Below, in pieces: positions 1-7,358 of a DNA stretch of 64,000 nucleotides. Source of the stretch: an uncultured Clostridia bacterium (GTDB lineage: Bacteria; Bacillota; Clostridia; TANB77; CAG-508); contig CALXXZ010000008.1 in the NCBI GenBank assembly GCA_944392805.1, forward strand, positions 6,173 through 70,172. The letters are read 5' to 3'. The translations under genes were made by a program, and so were the position numbers. The notes under the pieces were generated by a model that saw nothing but the letters and a program-made list of their open reading frames with translations, was not told where the DNA came from and ran no database searches. Numbering within the stretch: the stretch's first letter is position 1; every line of letters starts with the position of its first letter.

Positions 1-1
1 A

Positions 2-79
2 GAAAACGTTGCTAAAGCTGAAGCTGAAGAATTAAAAGCTAAACTTGAAGAAGTTGGAGCAGTTGTAGAATTACAATAA
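2..79 (+). CDS. rplL: ribosomal protein bL12 (L7/L12), C-terminal end; 5' partial at window edge
   Basis: Frame 2 reads ENVAKAEAEELKAKLEEVGAVVELQ*, the typical bL12 C-terminus. A strong terminator follows. Confidence 0.75.
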   Translation, partial: ENVAKAEAEELKAKLEEVGAVVELQ

Positions 80-102
80 TTTATAAATAATATAAAGAAA
101 TG

Positions 103-131
103 GAGTACATTTTTATGTACTCTATTTTTTT
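103..131 (+). terminator. intrinsic terminator after rplL
   Basis: GAGTACAT-TTTT-ATGTACTC stem-loop followed by a T-run. Confidence 0.7.
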
Positions 132-142
132 GCACAAAAAGT

Positions 143-169
143 TATCCTTAATTGTTTTAATTAAGGATA
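143..169. repeat. perfect palindrome A (11-bp arms, loop GTTTT)
   Basis: TATCCTTAATT-GTTTT-AATTAAGGATA. It is the exact reverse complement of the copy at 284-310. Confidence 0.85.
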
Positions 170-283
170 CATCATATTTATTTATATCAATAAATTCTAA
201 TAAAATCAAGATATTTATAAAATTTTCAAGAAAAGAGTTTATAAAATAAAACCTTGTAAATACTTATGTTAAAGACAACTATA

Positions 284-310
284 TATCCTTAATTAAAACA
301 ATTAAGGATA
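284..310. repeat. perfect palindrome B (11-bp arms, loop AAAAC)
   Basis: TATCCTTAATT-AAAAC-AATTAAGGATA, 27/27 identical to palindrome A in inverted orientation. Confidence 0.85.
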
Positions 311-319
311 TAAAAGGTA

Positions 320-348
320 TTTACAAATATCATATATTTATATATAAT
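320..348 (+). promoter_or_regulatory. sigma-A type promoter of the DGR target gene
   Basis: TTTACA-N17-TATAAT about 30 nt upstream of the AAGGAGG RBS and the ATG at 379. Confidence 0.5.
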
Positions 349-378
349 ATGAATAGATAAAACTAAGGAGGAAGAAAA

Positions 379-2058
379 ATGATAAGAAAAGAAAAAGGTA
401 TAACTTTAATAGCATTAGTAGTAACAATAGTGGTATTATTGATTTTAGCAGGAGTAAGCATAAGTATGCTAACAGGAGAAAATGGAATAATAACACAAGC
501 CCAAGATGCAAAAGAAAAGACTGATATAGGGAGAGAAAGAGAAATAGTAGAATTAGCAGCAGTAGGAGCAGCAGGAAAAAATAACTATGGAGAAATAACA
601 GAAGAAAATTTAGAAATAGAATTAAATGAAATGATAGGACCAAGAAATGAAGACTATACATTAGTAAAAGATGGAGAAAATTTTATAGTAACATATACAG
701 ATAGCAAAAGAGGTTATCAAATAGACGCAAATGGAAGAGTAACAGAAATAGAAATAAAAGAACCAGAAGACAAGCCAGAAGTATCACAAGACCCAGCATT
801 TTCAAGAGAATGGGGAGTAATAGAAATAGAATTTCTAAGTGGAACAGGTTATAATACAACTACAACTCCAAATGAACCAAATATGACAGCTGATATGAAA
901 GCAGTATATTGGGAAAATGGAGAGGAAAAAGTAGAAGGAGAATCAGCTGATTTCGATAAAAGTAAATGGTATAATTATATAGCTCAAACAGGGGCAACAA
1001 CATCAGGAGGAACAAGCAAGTGGGCAAATGCAAAAACAAGTGATGGAAGTTATTGGGTATGGATACCAAGATATGCATACAGAATAGTATATTTTGATAT
1101 AGAAGCACATAGAGACGTATATAGAGCAGATAATACACAAACAACAGGAATAATAGGATATAGTGATGCAAGAGGACTAGTAGATAAAGATGGAAAAACA
1201 CCAAATGATATAGGAGAGCCAGTAACAAGTATAGGAGTAGGAACAAATAAATTAAGACCACATCCAGCATTTGAAGATGGAAGTTTAACAGGATTTACAC
1301 AAGGAGAATGGGATAGTAAATTGGAAGGAATATGGGTAGCAAAATATGAGGTGAGCCAAAGTGGAACAACAATAAAATCAATACCAGGAGTACAAAGTTA
1401 TAGAAATTTAGAGATAGGAAATATGTATACAAAAGGATATGATTATGATAGAGAAAAAGAAAGTCATATGATGAAAAATAGCGAATGGGGAGCAGTAGCA
1501 TATTTAACTGATAGTAAATATGGAAGAAATGGAACAGCAGTAAGTATAAATTCACATGATGGTAATTATACAGGAGGAGCAGATGGAGCAACAGTATTAA
1601 CAAACCCATTACAAAGTACAACAGGAAATGAATACGGAATATATGATACAGTAGGAGGAGCATATGAATATGTAGCTGGATATATAGCAGATTCTAGTCA
1701 AAATTATGGAAATTCATTTGCATCAACAGATAATACAACAAATAACAAGACAGATAGTACAAAATATGCAACAGTATATAAAATGTCAACTTCAAATAGT
1801 GATACAGAAAATTACAAAGAAAATATAAATAAAATATTTGGAGATGGAACAATAGAAACATCAACTTCAAGCAATGGAAATGCTTCATGGCATTCAGCGT
1901 TCTCTTCTTTTGTAGGTATCTTCAGCAGCAACGATTTTCCGTTTTTCCATCGTGGAGGCATCTACAACAGCGCTTACCCAGGCTCTTTCTGCGTTAGCGC
2001 CTACTATGGCAGCAGCAGCTACAACTACGGTTTTCGCGTGTGTATTGCAGTAAAGTAA
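379..2058 (+). CDS. DGR variable (target) protein: prepilin-like N-terminal hydrophobic segment plus FGE-sulfatase/C-type-lectin-fold-like C-terminal domain carrying the VR
   Basis: N-terminus is MIRKEKG/ITLIALVVTIVVLLILAG. The C-terminal part has GIYDTVGGAYEYVAGY and FHRGG...GFRVCIAV motifs. Good RBS. The last ~52 codons match the TR. Confidence 0.8.
   Translation: MIRKEKGITLIALVVTIVVLLILAGVSISMLTGENGIITQAQDAKEKTDIGREREIVELAAVGAAGKNNYGEITEENLEIELNEMIGPRNEDYTLVKDGENFIVTYTDSKRGYQIDANGRVTEIEIKEPEDKPEVSQDPAFSREWGVIEIEFLSGTGYNTTTTPNEPNMTADMKAVYWENGEEKVEGESADFDKSKWYNYIAQTGATTSGGTSKWANAKTSDGSYWVWIPRYAYRIVYFDIEAHRDVYRADNTQTTGIIGYSDARGLVDKDGKTPNDIGEPVTSIGVGTNKLRPHPAFEDGSLTGFTQGEWDSKLEGIWVAKYEVSQSGTTIKSIPGVQSYRNLEIGNMYTKGYDYDREKESHMMKNSEWGAVAYLTDSKYGRNGTAVSINSHDGNYTGGADGATVLTNPLQSTTGNEYGIYDTVGGAYEYVAGYIADSSQNYGNSFASTDNTTNNKTDSTKYATVYKMSTSNSDTENYKENINKIFGDGTIETSTSSNGNASWHSAFSSFVGIFSSNDFPFFHRGGIYNSAYPGSFCVSAYYGSSSYNYGFRVCIAVK
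1896..2052 (+). repeat. DGR variable repeat (VR)
   Basis: Aligns to 2181-2286. All ~15 mismatches lie at TR adenines. GC-rich codons are atypical for this genome. The VR is 51 nt longer than the TR. Confidence 0.85.
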
Positions 2059-2132
2059 TGTGAAATCTGAAATGTGAACTAATAAGAAAAAGAAAGAAAA
2101 AAGGAAAAGGGGAAGAAATTAGAACCAAAAAT

Positions 2133-2166
2133 TGCTTTTCGTTCGAGGACACTTGAGCGAAAAGCA
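2133..2166 (+). other. GC-rich extended hairpin 14 nt upstream of the TR
   Basis: TGCTTTTCG...CGAAAAGCA outer stem and an inner TTCGAG-GACA-CTTGAG stem with G-U pairs. Confidence 0.5.
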
Positions 2167-2180
2167 CGGGGATATACCTG

Positions 2181-2286
2181 AACGAACTCTTATTTTGTAG
2201 GTATCAACAACAGCAACAATTATCCGTTTTTCAAACGTGGAGGCAACTACAACAACAACAACGGTTTTCGCGTGTGTATTGCAATA
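2181..2286 (+). repeat. DGR template repeat (TR)
   Basis: Non-coding copy of the VR rich in AAC/AAT codons (..GINNSNNYPFFKRGGNYNNNNGFRVCIA). Identical to the VR at all non-A positions. Confidence 0.85.
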
Positions 2287-2441
2287 TGGTATAAAGTTAT
2301 CAGGTATGTAAGTTTAAGGACTTATGTAGAGTATATATACCATACAAGGTATATTCCCTCCATAAGAGAAATCAAATGGTAAATAAGTAAAATAAAAAGC
2401 ACATCTTAGTAATAAAATATGAAAGGGAGTGCTTTTTTTCT

Positions 2442-2804
2442 ATGGCAAAAATAGTAGAAAGTAAGTTATTAATATATCAAAAATATGTAGATTTAATAGA
2501 ATATGGATATAATTTATTAATAAAATATCCAAAAGTAGAAAAATATGGTTTAACAAGTGAAATAAGAAAAAGTATGTTTGAAACAATAAGATTAATATTA
2601 TATGCAAACAAAATATCAAATAAAATGAATAAATTAAATGTAATAAATAAAATAGATGCAGAAATAAGTACACAAAAATTTTTTGTAAGATTTTCATACA
2701 AGAAAAAATACATTAATTCTAACAACTATTATGAATGGTCAAAAAGATTAGATGAAATAGGAAAAATAATAGGAGGTTGGATAAAATCATGCCTAAAAGA
2801 ATAA
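2442..2804 (+). CDS. avd: DGR accessory variability determinant (Avd-like four-helix-bundle protein)
   Basis: 120 aa with LLIYQKYVDLIEYGYNLLIKYPKVEKYGLTSEIRKS, typical of the Avd / 23S-rRNA-IVS four-helix-bundle family. It overlaps the RT start. Confidence 0.75.
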   Translation: MAKIVESKLLIYQKYVDLIEYGYNLLIKYPKVEKYGLTSEIRKSMFETIRLILYANKISNKMNKLNVINKIDAEISTQKFFVRFSYKKKYINSNNYYEWSKRLDEIGKIIGGWIKSCLKE

Positions 2805-3578
2805 ATAACATATTCAAAAAAGCAATTACGTTTAATAAAATATTAGAAGCACATAATAAAACAAAAAAAGGAAAAAGATTTAAAAAACAAGTAATAGAAT
2901 TTGAAATGAATTTAGAAAGTAATATAATACAAATAGGAAAAGAACTACTAAGTGGAAATTATCAATTTTCAAAATATTTTGAATTTACAATATATGAACC
3001 AAAAGAAAGAAAAATAAAAACACTTGAATATAGAGATAGAGTGGTGCAAACTTGGTATGTAGAAAACTTTTTAAAACCATATTTTGAACCACAATTTATA
3101 CAAGATAGTTATGCATGTATAAAAAATCGAGGAACACACAAAGCAGTAGATAAACTACAAAAATATTTAATAAAAGCAGAAAAAGAGTATAAACAAGTGT
3201 GGGTATTAAAATGTGATATAAAAAAATTCTTTTTTAATTTAGAAAATAAACAAAAAGCAAAAGAAATACTAATAGAAATAAAAAATTTTTATTAGAAAAT
3301 TTAAAATTAGAATTAAATTCAAAAACAGCATATTTTAAAGCACAACAAGGAATAAATTTTTGTGGATTTAGAATATGGAAAACACATAAATTAATAAGAG
3401 AACAAAGCAAGAAAAAGATGAAAAGAAAAATGAAAACATTTCAAAAGCTATATAAAAAAGATAAAATAGAATTAGCATATATAACAGCATGTATAAATTC
3501 ATGGAAAGGACATGTAAAACATGCTAATACCTACAATCTAATAAACAAAATGTTTAAAGAATTTGTATTAACAAAATA
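2777..3578 (+). pseudogene. DGR reverse transcriptase, internally deleted (catalytic motifs missing) and frameshifted
   Basis: The N-terminal part has YRDRVVQ, SYACIKNRGTHKA and CDIKKFF. The ORF stops at 3295. The C-terminal part continues in another frame (FLLENLKLELNSKT..GINFCGFRIW..SWKGHVKHANTYNL*). No IGxLTSQ or YxDD motif in any frame. Confidence 0.75.
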
Positions 3579-3591
3579 ATTATCATATGAA

Positions 3592-3620
3592 TTGACAAAA
3601 CAATAAAAAATATATAAAAT
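3592..3620 (+). promoter_or_regulatory. promoter of mtnN
   Basis: TTGACA-N17-TAAAAT. Confidence 0.5.
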
Positions 3621-3656
3621 ACACATATAAAGAATAATAAAGATATGGAGAAGAAA

Positions 3657-4349
3657 ATGAATAAATATGGAATAATAGCTGCAATGAAAGAAGAAATGCA
3701 AGAAATAAAAAACATAATGCAAGAAATAGAAGAAATAAAAGAAAAAGAACTGATATTTTTTAAAGGAAAAATAAATAACAGTAATGTCATACTAGTAGAA
3801 GCAGGAATAGGAAAAGTAAATGCTGCAAGAGTGACGCAATTAATGATAGATAAATTTGAAGTACAAGAAATAATAAATGTAGGTTCAGCAGGAAGTGCAA
3901 ATAATGAACTAAAAATAGGAGATATAGTAATAGGAAAAAAACTAGTGCAACACGATTTTGACATAACAGCATTTGGACATCCAAAAGGATTTATCAGCAA
4001 TATTGGACAATATGTGGAAAGTAATCCACAATTAATAAGTAAAATGGAAAAAACAATTTCAAAATTATCGCAAAACGAATTTAGAATAAAAATAGGAACA
4101 ATAGCATCAGGAGATATATTTTGCACTGAACCAAAAATGAAAGATAAAATAAGAACAAAATTTAATGCAGATGCAATTGAAATGGAAAGTGCAGCAATAG
4201 CACAAGTGTGTAAATTAAATGATATACCATTTATAATAATAAGGAGTATATCAGATAATCCTGATGGAAAAAATGAGATAACATTTGATAAATTTTTAGA
4301 AAAAGCTTCAAAAAGATGTGCAGAGATAATAAAAGAATTTTTGAACTAA
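3657..4349 (+). CDS. mtnN: 5'-methylthioadenosine/S-adenosylhomocysteine nucleosidase
   Basis: GIIAAMKEE, GIGKVNAA, EMESAAIAQVC and IRSISD motifs. Start moved to the ATG at 3657, which lies 6 nt after GGAG (ORF track starts at 3645). Confidence 0.85.
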   Translation: MNKYGIIAAMKEEMQEIKNIMQEIEEIKEKELIFFKGKINNSNVILVEAGIGKVNAARVTQLMIDKFEVQEIINVGSAGSANNELKIGDIVIGKKLVQHDFDITAFGHPKGFISNIGQYVESNPQLISKMEKTISKLSQNEFRIKIGTIASGDIFCTEPKMKDKIRTKFNADAIEMESAAIAQVCKLNDIPFIIIRSISDNPDGKNEITFDKFLEKASKRCAEIIKEFLN

Positions 4350-4406
4350 AAAATACTTGATAGATTAAACAATATATAGTAGAATGAATAATATGAGAGG
4401 TAATTT

Positions 4407-4694
4407 ATGAAATATGGTTTAACAGAAGATGTATATAATAAAATAAAACAAGTTATAAAGAATAATAGTAAATATAAATTTTTGTTATTTGGTTCTAGAG
4501 CTAGAGGAGATTATAAAAGTACATCAGATATTGATATAGCTGTAAAAGAAAAAGTAACAAGAAATGATCAATATAAAATAATGAACGAAATTGACTTGTT
4601 AGATATTATATATAAAGTAGATATAGTATTTATAGATGAAAAAACTAAAAAAGAATTATTAGAGTCAATAAATAGAGATGGAGTTGAGTTTTAA
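4407..4694 (+). CDS. minimal nucleotidyltransferase (MNT) antitoxin-type protein
   Basis: GSRARGDYKSTSDIDIAV nucleotidyltransferase motif. 1-nt overlap with the next ORF. Confidence 0.75.
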   Translation: MKYGLTEDVYNKIKQVIKNNSKYKFLLFGSRARGDYKSTSDIDIAVKEKVTRNDQYKIMNEIDLLDIIYKVDIVFIDEKTKKELLESINRDGVEF

Positions 4695-5074
4695 TGAAAA
4701 GGTTTGAAGAAAGAAAACAAGAATTATTAAATGCAACACAAAGATTAAAAGAAGTCATAAATAAAGAAGAAAATGATATAGTAATAGACTGTACACTACA
4801 TAGATTCGAATTTACATTTGAGTTAGCATGGAAAACATTAAAAGATTATATGGAATACAATGGTATAATTGAAGTAACAGGAAGTCCAAGAGAGGTAATA
4901 AAAGAAGCTTTTAGAAACAATATAATACAAGATGGAGAAAATTGGATAAACATGATGCTAGCAAGAAATAGCCTATCACATTTATATGATGAAGAAAAAT
5001 CAAGAGAAATCTATATTGAAATAAAAGAAAAATATATAAAACTAATAGAACAACTAAATGAAAAATTAAATTAA
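4694..5074 (+). CDS. HEPN-domain protein (HI0074 nucleotidyltransferase substrate-binding family)
   Basis: About 126 aa helical protein with the Rx4H motif (RNSLSH). Translationally coupled to the MNT. Confidence 0.7.
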   Translation: MKRFEERKQELLNATQRLKEVINKEENDIVIDCTLHRFEFTFELAWKTLKDYMEYNGIIEVTGSPREVIKEAFRNNIIQDGENWINMMLARNSLSHLYDEEKSREIYIEIKEKYIKLIEQLNEKLN

Positions 5075-5102
5075 ACATAATACACAAAAAATGGAAAAAT
5101 AG

Positions 5103-5131
5103 TTGATTTATAGCCTAAAACGTGGTATAAT
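5103..5131 (+). promoter_or_regulatory. promoter with extended -10
   Basis: TTGATT-N17 (ending TGg)-TATAAT upstream of the ORF at 5174. Confidence 0.5.
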
Positions 5132-5173
5132 ATAAATGTATCTTTTTAGATACAGAAAGATAGGAGATAAAAA

Positions 5174-5503
5174 ATGGGAGTATTAACAAGAATAGGAGAA
5201 CTAATAAAAGCATTTTCAGTTCCACAAAAAGAAATTGAAGGACAAGATGAAGAAGAAATAACAGTAGATAAATTAGTAAAGATAGCAGAACAATCAGGAA
5301 CAAGTATTGAAAATATAGAAGAATTAAAAAAAGGATATCAAGGTCAGGAAACGCGAGAGGAAAAATTTAGAAGAGAGCAAGTAGAAGCAGCACAAGAAGA
5401 AGAAAAAACAAGCGGAAGAAAACCAAAAATACAAGAAAATCAACAAGCAATAAAGCCAGAGATTCAGCCAAAACAAAGAACTGGAACTGATGAAGGAAGA
5501 TAA
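5174..5503 (+). CDS. hypothetical highly charged small protein
   Basis: Good RBS and purine-rich codon usage like its neighbours. No recognisable motif. Confidence 0.5.
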   Translation: MGVLTRIGELIKAFSVPQKEIEGQDEEEITVDKLVKIAEQSGTSIENIEELKKGYQGQETREEKFRREQVEAAQEEEKTSGRKPKIQENQQAIKPEIQPKQRTGTDEGR

Positions 5504-5516
5504 AAAATTAGATTAT

Positions 5517-5548
5517 AAAGTGAATTTAGATATTCACTTTATTTTTTT
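5517..5548 (+). terminator. intrinsic terminator
   Basis: AAAGTGAAT-loop-ATTCACTTT followed by A and T7. Confidence 0.7.
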
Positions 5549-5681
5549 GACAAAAAAATAAAAAAAATATATTTTTTTCGGAAAAATATTTACATTTTGT
5601 AATAATTTGTATACAATATACAAAGGAAGTTTCGAATAAAAAATAACAAAAGAAAATCGAACTGAAGAAAGGGGTAAATCA

Positions 5682-6974
5682 ATGAAAATATTGATGCTAA
5701 CATGGGAATATCCACCAAGAGTAGTAGGTGGAATAGCGAGAGTAGTATATGACCTATCACACAGACTAATAAAAGATGGTCATGAAGTAACTGTAGTAAC
5801 ATACAGAGAAGGAGATGCTCCATATTATGAGGATGATAAAGGAGTAAAAGTACACAGAGTAGACAATTACATGATAAATCCAAACAATTTTATAGACTGG
5901 ATAATGCAAATGAACTTCAATATGATAGCAAAAGCAAATCAAATAATATCAGAAGAAGGCAAATTCGATGTAATACATGCACATGACTGGTTAGTAGCGT
6001 ATGCTGCCAAAACAATAAAGAATTCATACAATATCCCAATAGTAGCAACAATACATGCCACAGAATCAGGAAGAAACAGTGGAATACATGATGAAACCCA
6101 AAGATATATAAATGATACAGAATGGATGCTTACATATGAAGCAACAGAAGTAATAGTAAACAGCAATTACATGAAAGGCGAAACACAAAGACTATTTGGA
6201 TTACCATTTGAAAAAATAAATGTAGTAGCAAATGGAGTAAACTTAAATAAATTTAGTGGAGTAGAAAGAGACTATCAATTTAGAAGAAGATATGCAATGG
6301 ATAATGAAAAAATAATATTATTCATGGGAAGACTAGTATATGAAAAAGGTGTACAAAACCTAATAGCAGCAATGCCAAAAATCCTAGCAGGATATCATGA
6401 TGCAAAACTTGTAATAGCAGGAAAAGGTGGAATGCTAGATGAATTAAGAGCACAAGCTGATGCACTAGGAATAAGTAATAAAGTATATTTTGCAGGATAC
6501 ATGAATGGAAAAGATGTAGAAAAAATGTACAAAGCAGCAGACATATCAGTATTTCCAAGCACATATGAACCATTCGGAATAGTAGCATTAGAAGGAATGC
6601 TAGCAGAAAGACCAATAGTAGTATCAGATGCTGGAGGACTAGGAGAAATAGTAGACCATAGAGAAACAGGAATGAAGAGTTATTGTGGAAATCCAAATTC
6701 AATTGCAGACTCAATATTAGAATTACTATTTAATCCAGAACTATGTGCAAATATAGTAAAAAAAGCAAAAGCAAAAGTAAAAAATGAATATAATTGGGCA
6801 AAAATAGCACAAGACACACACTTCACATATCAAAAAGCAATATGCGAAACAATGGCAGAAAGACAAAGAAAACAAAATGAACAAGAAAAAGCAAAAAAGA
6901 CAAAAAAAGCAAAAGGAACAGAAAAAGAAATTACAAACTTATTATCTTTCAAAAAACGTCAAGCATATGCATAA
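5682..6974 (+). CDS. glycosyltransferase family 4 (GT-B, group 1)
   Basis: N-terminal MKILMLTWEYPPRVVGGIARVV and C-terminal E..FGIVALEGM motifs. Lys-rich tail. Confidence 0.75.
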   Translation: MKILMLTWEYPPRVVGGIARVVYDLSHRLIKDGHEVTVVTYREGDAPYYEDDKGVKVHRVDNYMINPNNFIDWIMQMNFNMIAKANQIISEEGKFDVIHAHDWLVAYAAKTIKNSYNIPIVATIHATESGRNSGIHDETQRYINDTEWMLTYEATEVIVNSNYMKGETQRLFGLPFEKINVVANGVNLNKFSGVERDYQFRRRYAMDNEKIILFMGRLVYEKGVQNLIAAMPKILAGYHDAKLVIAGKGGMLDELRAQADALGISNKVYFAGYMNGKDVEKMYKAADISVFPSTYEPFGIVALEGMLAERPIVVSDAGGLGEIVDHRETGMKSYCGNPNSIADSILELLFNPELCANIVKKAKAKVKNEYNWAKIAQDTHFTYQKAICETMAERQRKQNEQEKAKKTKKAKGTEKEITNLLSFKKRQAYA

Positions 6975-6983
6975 CAAAAATAT

Positions 6984-7008
6984 CAGCTGCACAAAATGCA
7001 GCTGTTTT
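6984..7008 (+). terminator. intrinsic terminator
   Basis: CAGCTGCA-caaaa-TGCAGCTG followed by TTTT. Confidence 0.7.
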
Positions 7009-7025
7009 AGATAGGAGAATAAAAA

Positions 7026-7358
7026 ATGGTATATGATACAGCAAACAAATTAGCAGAAGAAATAAAACAATCAGAAGAATATATGACATATCAAATGGCA
7101 AAAGAAGCAATCAACTTAAATTATGAATTAAAACAACAGATAGACGAATTTGAAAAAGCTAGATATGAAGCACAAATTATTGCACTTCAAACTGGCAAAG
7201 ATGATGAATCAAAATTAAGACATGTACAAGAATTATATGGACAATTAATTCAAAATCAAGAAGCAAGTAAATATTTTGATGCTGAAATGAAATTTAATAT
7301 AATGATTGCAGACATAAATAAAATAATAGGACAAGCCATTCAAGATTTAATAAAATAA
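7026..7358 (+). CDS. ylbF: YlbF/YmcA family regulatory protein
   Basis: 110-aa helical protein. The pattern LAEEIKQSEEY...YEL..QI.EF matches the Com_YlbF family. Confidence 0.65.
   Translation: MVYDTANKLAEEIKQSEEYMTYQMAKEAINLNYELKQQIDEFEKARYEAQIIALQTGKDDESKLRHVQELYGQLIQNQEASKYFDAEMKFNIMIADINKIIGQAIQDLIK

Follow-up and report, generated by a model that had tools for sequence, protein, structure and literature searches.

The DGR that lies at the start of the window, by which we mean the whole 64-kb stretch of DNA analysed here, from an uncultured gut Clostridia bacterium, has very probably been inactivated in the recent past by three small and separate lesions, leaving its variable protein frozen. 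An in-frame deletion of 231 nt in the reverse transcriptase (RT) gene has taken away the dNTP-binding motif 4 and the catalytic YMDD, the loss of one A from an A7 run truncates the RT protein, and 51 nt have been lost inside the template repeat (TR), between CAACAAC repeats. Without RT motifs 4 and 5 mutagenic retrohoming should stop, with the last-written VR becoming fixed and the target gene being expressed as a single frozen variant; any order among the three events can only be inferred. As far as can be judged from sequence, the DGR is most likely dead, and its target protein still expressed in a single fixed form.

The DGR cassette and its lesions

The cassette lies within window positions 1-6000, on the + strand, where the end of rplL is followed by the target gene, a VR/TR pair, an Avd gene and the remnant of an RT gene:

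1-78, + strand: 3' end of rplL
379-2058, + strand: DGR target gene, 559 aa, ORF intact; the same gene is called in two contigs from other samples, L092 and L093
1902-2051, + strand: VR, full length; 11 positions differ from the window TR, every one of them a TR adenine; L092 and L093 carry the same sequence
1970-2020, + strand: orphan part of the VR, 51 nt without template in the window TR, corresponding to the matching 51 nt in the TRs of relatives (boundaries +/- a few nt)
2133-2166, + strand: hairpin of 15 bp, about 20 nt upstream of the TR (-22.5 kcal/mol, z -7.1)
2187-2285, + strand: TR with a 51-nt internal deletion at about 2254/2255, between CAACAAC(A) direct repeats
2442-2804, + strand: Avd accessory gene, intact, 120 aa (Pfam bAvd, 4e-26), overlapping the RT start
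2789-3295, + strand: RT remnant, N-terminal frame, 168 aa from the ATG at 2789, with motifs 1-3, the post-YMDD segment and a premature stop
3238-3239, + strand: junction of the in-frame RT deletion of 231 nt (77 codons), which removes motif 4 (IGNFSSQ) and motif 5 (YMDD)
3280-3285, + strand: A6 homopolymer, A7 in 6/6 relatives; a 1-nt deletion that causes a frameshift
3286-3579, + strand: C-terminal remnant of the RT (thumb region), read in the -1 frame up to the normal stop (profile positions 233-340)

The DGR adjoins rplL on its downstream side and is chromosomal, among housekeeping genes, in a window that is AT-rich throughout (GC 27%). A phage origin was considered and rejected on account of these neighbours and of a megablast search of window 1-6000 against a phage collection, which returned no match.

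Concerning the target, the VR forms the last ~50 codons of the 559-aa ORF. The protein starts (window 379-460) with a prepilin-type methylation/transmembrane segment, MIRKEKGITLIALVV..., which matches Pfam N_methyl at an E-value of 0.003, below the Pfam cut-off, and ends in an FGE-sulfatase/C-type-lectin-like region (Pfam FGE-sulfatase, E 5e-4, 20.2 bits against a cut-off of 23.3 bits). Given its prepilin-type N-terminal segment, the diversified target is probably a pilin-like surface protein. The hairpin upstream of the TR is retained in relatives, whose loop differs at one position, and may be part of the DGR RNA or of its regulation. The accessory protein Avd, a four-helix bundle typical of DGRs, is well preserved: it scores above cut-off with Pfam bAvd and with NCBIfam DivGenRetAVD (1.8e-26, 92 bits against a cut-off of 80), and is 99.4% identical to its counterpart in the related contig L001.

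An adjacent RT with motif 4 (I/LGxxxSQ) and YxDD, which is another hallmark of DGRs, is represented only by a remnant that is orthologous to DGR RTs. Its ORF, which starts at the ATG at 2789 or at an alternative TTG at 2777, reads ...LKCDIKKFFFN and then, as the original prediction had noted, passes directly to the segment that normally follows YxDD, LENKQKAKEILIEIKNFY, to end at a premature TAG at 3293-3295. The ATG-start product of 168 aa is the recorded form, and a look-up of the 172-aa TTG-start product gave no record. The stop lies just past the A6 (3280-3285) and T5 (3286-3290) runs, where it had been predicted, and the conserved RT C-terminus (FLLENLKLELNSKT ... FVLTK and stop) is picked up again at 3286-3579, shifted to the -1 frame. 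On the N-terminal ORF the Pfam RVT_1 match is confined to positions 9-89 of the 205-position profile, and a family profile built from 21 intact relatives and run on six frames matches positions 1-160 and 233-340, with nothing in between. The palm motifs are indeed missing, and no YxDD had been overlooked in any frame.

The intact orthologue P0002, found by protein search, has 340 aa and is 97-98% identical. We aligned the DNA with four intact orthologues (L001-L004, 98-99% DNA identity), to which L005 and L006 were added as further relatives. In the alignment with L001-L004, the window has a gap of exactly 231 nt, in frame, at 3238/3239. The 77 missing codons agree with the earlier estimate of about 75-80 residues including IGxLTSQ and YMDD; they correspond to residues 151-227 of P0002 and include VGIPIGNFSSQYFANIY (motif 4) and RYMDDFV (motif 5). 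In RTs, motif 4 binds dNTP and YMDD is the catalytic box, the aspartates of which are needed for cDNA synthesis. With motif 4 and these aspartates lost, the core-less RT is predicted, from knowledge of the RT palm domain and from alignment with the Bordetella phage enzyme bRT, to be unable to polymerise cDNA.

The second RT lesion lies 45 nt downstream of the deletion junction. All six relatives (L001-L006) have A7 followed by T5 at this place, and the window has A6 followed by T5; the missing base is therefore an A and not a T. The original prediction had rightly placed the C-terminus in another frame and stated that one extra T would restore it, which either added base, A or T, would do, but it had named the wrong base as lost. 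With motifs 4 and 5 gone and the reading frame disrupted, we class the locus as a DGR remnant and not as a functional member.

The third lesion, a 51-nt deletion in the TR, had escaped the first reading of the sequence. The VR/TR alignment falls into two blocks, with 51 nt missing from the TR between them, and over the ~98 aligned nt there are 11 mismatches, 11/11 at TR adenines and none at other bases. The restriction of VR/TR differences to TR adenines that is characteristic of DGRs is thus seen save for 51 VR nt that have no TR counterpart: the reported identity at non-A positions holds for the aligned part and does not extend to VR 1970-2020, which is now without template. The TRs of relatives are all 51 nt longer, reading ...GGCAACTACAACAAC, then ACTAACGC...AGCAACAAC, then AACAACGG..., and it is the middle part, from ACTAACGC to AGCAACAAC, that is gone from the window TR. 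The deletion is flanked by CAACAAC(A) direct repeats and is in frame (17 codons). Because the VR is still full length, and 51 nt longer than the TR, no retrohoming, that is, no copying of cDNA of the shortened TR into the VR, has taken place since the TR deletion. The VR is also identical in the window, L092 and L093, and the ongoing adenine mutagenesis that marks active DGRs is not seen between these near-identical strains.

The orphan VR segment (1970-2020) has five non-adenine differences from the TR of relatives, and the rest of the VR has none from the window TR; these five differences likely reflect a lineage-specific ancestral TR.

Short direct repeats flank the TR deletion and the frameshift falls in a homopolymer, so that both probably arose by replication slippage in this very AT-rich DNA. 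Slippage is a less certain proposal for the 231-nt deletion, at whose junction there is one substitution (TTAGAAAAT vs TTAAAAAAT) and no clear microhomology.

Age of the decay and alternative explanations

The close relatives of the window are human-gut MAGs labelled uncultured Clostridia, and contigs L001-L004 share the gene order Avd, RT, PNP_UDP_1, GT4, YlbF. In comparison with L001/L002, the TR-Avd-RT module (window 2059-3579) is 98-100% identical to its intact relatives, whereas the flanking genes (1300-1880 and 3645-7358) are 91-96% identical; the TR-proximal spacer is the same as in relatives at 149/149 nt. From this difference between module and flanks, the DGR core seems to have recently moved or recombined between related genomes at the same locus, and the data support a decay of RT and TR that is younger than this exchange, in keeping with the very recent decay put forward as one of three options in the original prediction. 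L001 and L002 have identical RT and TR and different VRs, each departing from the TR only at adenines, which indicates that the cassette of the relatives is active.

Two local differences from these relatives were also observed. The spacer between VR and TR in L002 contains a 19-nt tandem duplication, GAAGAAAAAAGGAAAAGGG (~480-520), that is absent from the window. Window 4407-5074 contains two genes, for a nucleotidyltransferase and for an NTase-substrate-binding protein (95 and 126 aa), which resemble a toxin-antitoxin pair and are absent at this place in L001 and L002.

The exact 168-aa truncated RT product is called on at least five contigs. Three of these (L092, L093 and L094), which come from three samples and two pipelines (ENA scaffolds and Logan), were compared with the window. 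Over 6295 nt, L093 is 100% identical to it. L092, which comes from another sample, shows three differences, each lying beyond the DGR, and L094, which Logan assembled from run ERR4096581, shows none over the stretch that starts at the TR junction and takes in the RT lesions. Each matches the window across whichever lesions it covers, and the intact form is found in 0/3; two of the confirming contigs are from one study (record names ONAT22-1), and may represent one strain in one cohort. Moreover, the repeats at the deletion ends measure 0-8 nt, far shorter than assembler k-mers. The recurrence of the same lesions across three samples and two pipelines, together with end repeats of this length, supports the view that the lesions are real and the VR frozen in this strain, as judged from assembled contigs rather than reads.

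Breakage of the RT is also frequent among relatives. Of 17 species-representative genomes with an RT at least 70% identical to P0002, 12 have it intact and five broken, by a +C frameshift (L059), a frameshift in a T run (L062), insertions (L061 and L063) or a deletion of ~680 nt (L091). Two other in-frame deletions of the core were found, one of 204 nt (P0001; L005 and L006, from two studies) between 12-nt repeats, ATTATTAAAAAA, and one of 216 nt (P0026; L009-L011, from at least two studies) at an AAAAA microhomology. The right breakpoints of the 231-nt and 204-nt deletions coincide. Descent of the former from the latter was nevertheless rejected, and the two deletions are best read as independent, because P0001 equals the intact P0002 plus one substitution and the window differs from P0002 at ~5 residues. 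Carriers of each deletion allele are mutually identical, which argues that all these alleles are young. Of the 216-nt carriers, two have the VR on their contigs; it is the same in both, and already differs from the TR at non-adenine positions. Our search favoured in-frame core deletions, and we claim no enrichment of such deletions.

Like the window allele, the other broken alleles of this RT family are young, recur across samples and are mostly knock-outs of the catalytic core (P0001, P0026, L091, L062 and the +C alleles described below). They differ from it in their breakpoints and lineages, and the TR deletion occurs only in the lineage of the window. In one further contig (L106:2344-2512; P0072) a segment of the RT core is apparently inverted, with a 9-nt overlap at the junction; this is a single Logan contig that ends before the second junction, and the inversion may be an artefact.

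Given DNA that is very AT-rich and repetitive, VR/TR near-repeats that can mislead assemblers and the frequent miscalling of homopolymers by some sequencing chemistries, one might suspect that the true RT and TR are intact and that the 231-nt and 51-nt segments were collapsed and the homopolymer misread. The concordance of the three contigs, the short repeats at the deletion ends and the fact that the 204-nt and 216-nt alleles likewise recur in independent studies leave such an artefact with hardly any credence, and refute the assembly collapse that had been envisaged. The original prediction also allowed that the cassette might be serviced in trans, that is, by a second intact cognate RT elsewhere in the genome. 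Avd, the TR-proximal spacer and the 3' end of the VR are all intact, as this would require, the TR deletion keeps the frame, and some related genomes do have two RT loci (for instance MAG CANRFE01, as L051 and L090). We nonetheless hold it to be very unlikely: no second RT was found in the 64-kb window, which covers only part of the genome, by tblastn with P0002 or by the family profile on six frames, the closest species genome has a single RT locus, and the VR exceeds the TR by 51 nt, so that no retrohoming would have followed the TR deletion, and is unchanged in both other samples whose contigs reach it.

The A6T5 run could in principle be a programmed -1 frameshift site (A AAA AAT) from which a fused full-length protein is still made, as the A-AAA-AAT heptamer at 3280-3286 looks like a slippery sequence, from which a -1 shift would lead exactly into the orthologous ...IKNFLLEN.... 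However, A7 with an uninterrupted frame in 6/6 relatives marks A6 as derived, and the fused product would still be without motifs 4 and 5, which makes this reading extremely improbable. Finally, loss of the RT may have been selected rather than neutral, a core knock-out locking in a favourable VR or removing the cost of mutagenesis, and the in-frame core-less protein perhaps keeping a non-catalytic role, such as binding of Avd or RNA. The motif 4-5 core has been lost three times independently, each time by an in-frame deletion (231, 204 and 216 nt), the RT is broken in 29% of the related species genomes, and every deletion allele is found in several samples. However, our query was itself an in-frame fusion, an ascertainment bias by which in-frame core deletions score best, and the window allele subsequently gained a frameshift, against any retained function of the protein. 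The carriers of each allele, being mutually identical, offer no post-deletion divergence to test; the dN/dS of deleted versus intact alleles is low (0.04-0.2) and reflects pre-deletion history, a test without power, and for these reasons it was rejected as a demonstration of selection. We consider selected loss unlikely, and prefer to see in the window a DGR recently inactivated by three separate lesions.

A RIT-like transposon in the RT genes of relatives

The RT genes of several relatives are interrupted by a transposon, here called element E, of 3423-3428 bp. The insertion splits motif 4 exactly at the boundary of its Ile and Gly codons (...CCA ATT/GGA AAT...), at L061:4346, L063:4566 and L095:1056, and in L101-L103 and L110-L119 (e.g. 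L110:4365-7787). Element E carries three co-oriented genes for Xer-like tyrosine recombinases of 406/407, 320/323 and 338/348 aa (in L095, L102, L103 and L110-L119), which overlap by a few codons and all match Phage_integrase or Xer models, below the equivalog cut-offs. Its terminal inverted repeats are perfect over 60-88 bp and begin with GGTTATAG.

A 28-nt near-palindrome always separates element E from the 3' half of the RT gene, in either orientation of the element, and the central TC of the palindrome follows that orientation. Such a pattern would fit a circular intermediate with two mirror-image crossover sites, for which the predicted circular junction is ...CATAATATT joined to GGTTATAG.... 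The presumed target sequence for insertion of the element reads ...CCAATTGGAAAT....

The association with DGRs is strict. One identical RitA protein is encoded at 10 places, of which 10/10 fall within the RT genes of DGRs, in at least five neighbourhoods and in both orientations, and Avd adjoins wherever the contig reaches. Seven copies of the element, together also in at least five neighbourhoods, are 99.8-100% identical to that of L110, and the occupied RT genes can be as low as 30-50% identical to P0002. Removal of the element and the palindrome in silico gives back an uninterrupted RT ORF that includes motif 4 and YxDD in all complete cases (9/9).

Recombinase-in-trio (RIT) elements were reportedly described by Ricker et al. 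in 2013. Element E has their hallmark trio of overlapping, co-oriented Xer-like recombinase genes, the first being longer (406 aa), as well as long, perfect inverted repeats and near-identical dispersed copies (for the organisation of RIT elements and the subgroups RitA/B/C see PMC8138268). Unlike known RIT elements, it is strictly specific for one site in DGR RT genes and is accompanied by the 28-nt palindrome. The searchable literature holds no description of such site specificity or of such a palindrome in RIT elements, and no paper linking these with DGRs. No copy was found in viral contigs.

Element E is absent from the window: its terminal repeat has no match there even at 3 mismatches, and the 231-nt junction contains no element sequence. 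A transposon remnant in the window was rejected on these grounds, and nothing in the sequence points to element E as a cause of the window's deletions.

A single extra C is present at the same Ile/Gly boundary (ATT-C-GGA, ATA-C-GGT or ATC-C-GGA) in at least five lineages, with the downstream frame open through YMDD (L007:~1179, L008:~1906, L059:~4565 and L120:~1640; proteins P0045, P0046, P0048, P0053, P0060, P0062 and P0064). Each of these lineages is closer to an intact allele than to the others, P0046 for example being 97% identical to the intact P0005. Because L120, with an empty +C site, and L095, with an occupied one, share an identical left junction, CCAATCCGG, the extra C is probably a scar of element E. 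We also considered whether the extra C marks an old programmed +1 frameshift site with a rare CGG codon, and rejected this, since intact and +C alleles are intermingled and the peptidyl-site codon varies (ATT, ATA, ATC).

Significance and comparison with known systems

The event in the window is an ordinary and known kind of decay, common in this RT family. As regards annotation, the DGR should be treated as a fossil with a fixed, pilin-like variable protein, and left out of any count of active hypermutation systems. The locus also offers a well-controlled case of how fast a DGR can be switched off in nature, active and dead alleles being 98-100% identical. In itself it is of modest interest, and the recurrent inactivation of the RT and the motif-4 transposon are the parts more worthy of attention.

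A recent preprint (bioRxiv 10.1101/2024.11.15.621889) names in its discussion, as an open question of the field, the means by which hosts control the cost of DGR mutagenesis. Element E represents a transposon family that is apparently specialised on the catalytic motif of DGR RTs and, if its excision is precise, would act as a mobile on/off switch for targeted hypermutation. It is conceivable, although we regard it as doubtful, that switching off the RT is a recurrent and biologically used way of freezing a DGR surface protein in gut Clostridia, irreversible when it occurs by slippage deletions of the core and reversible when a RIT-type transposon inserts at and excises from motif 4, with a +C scar possible upon imperfect excision.

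Among known cassettes, that of BRZ_EF__bin101 (CALXJU010000029.1; L001/L012) has the same neighbourhood as the window, the DGR being followed by PNP_UDP_1, GT4, YlbF and SecG, with flanking genes 91-96% identical. It differs in having a full 340-aa RT, a full-length TR and its own VR that departs from the TR at adenines only, and in the absence of the nucleotidyltransferase pair of window 4407-5074.

With the DGR of Bordetella phage BPP-1 (bRT-Avd; PDB 8ub7), the window shares a target with a C-terminal VR, a TR, Avd, an RT and VR/TR differences confined to adenines. Aligned with bRT, the intact orthologue P0002 matches end to end (residues 2-336, E 5e-59), whereas the window RT is without the residues aligned to bRT ~146-220, which include IGSLTSQ and YMDD, and is frameshifted. 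The two systems also differ in setting, the BPP-1 DGR being carried by a phage and diversifying a tail fibre, and that of the window being chromosomal in Clostridia, with a pilin-like target.
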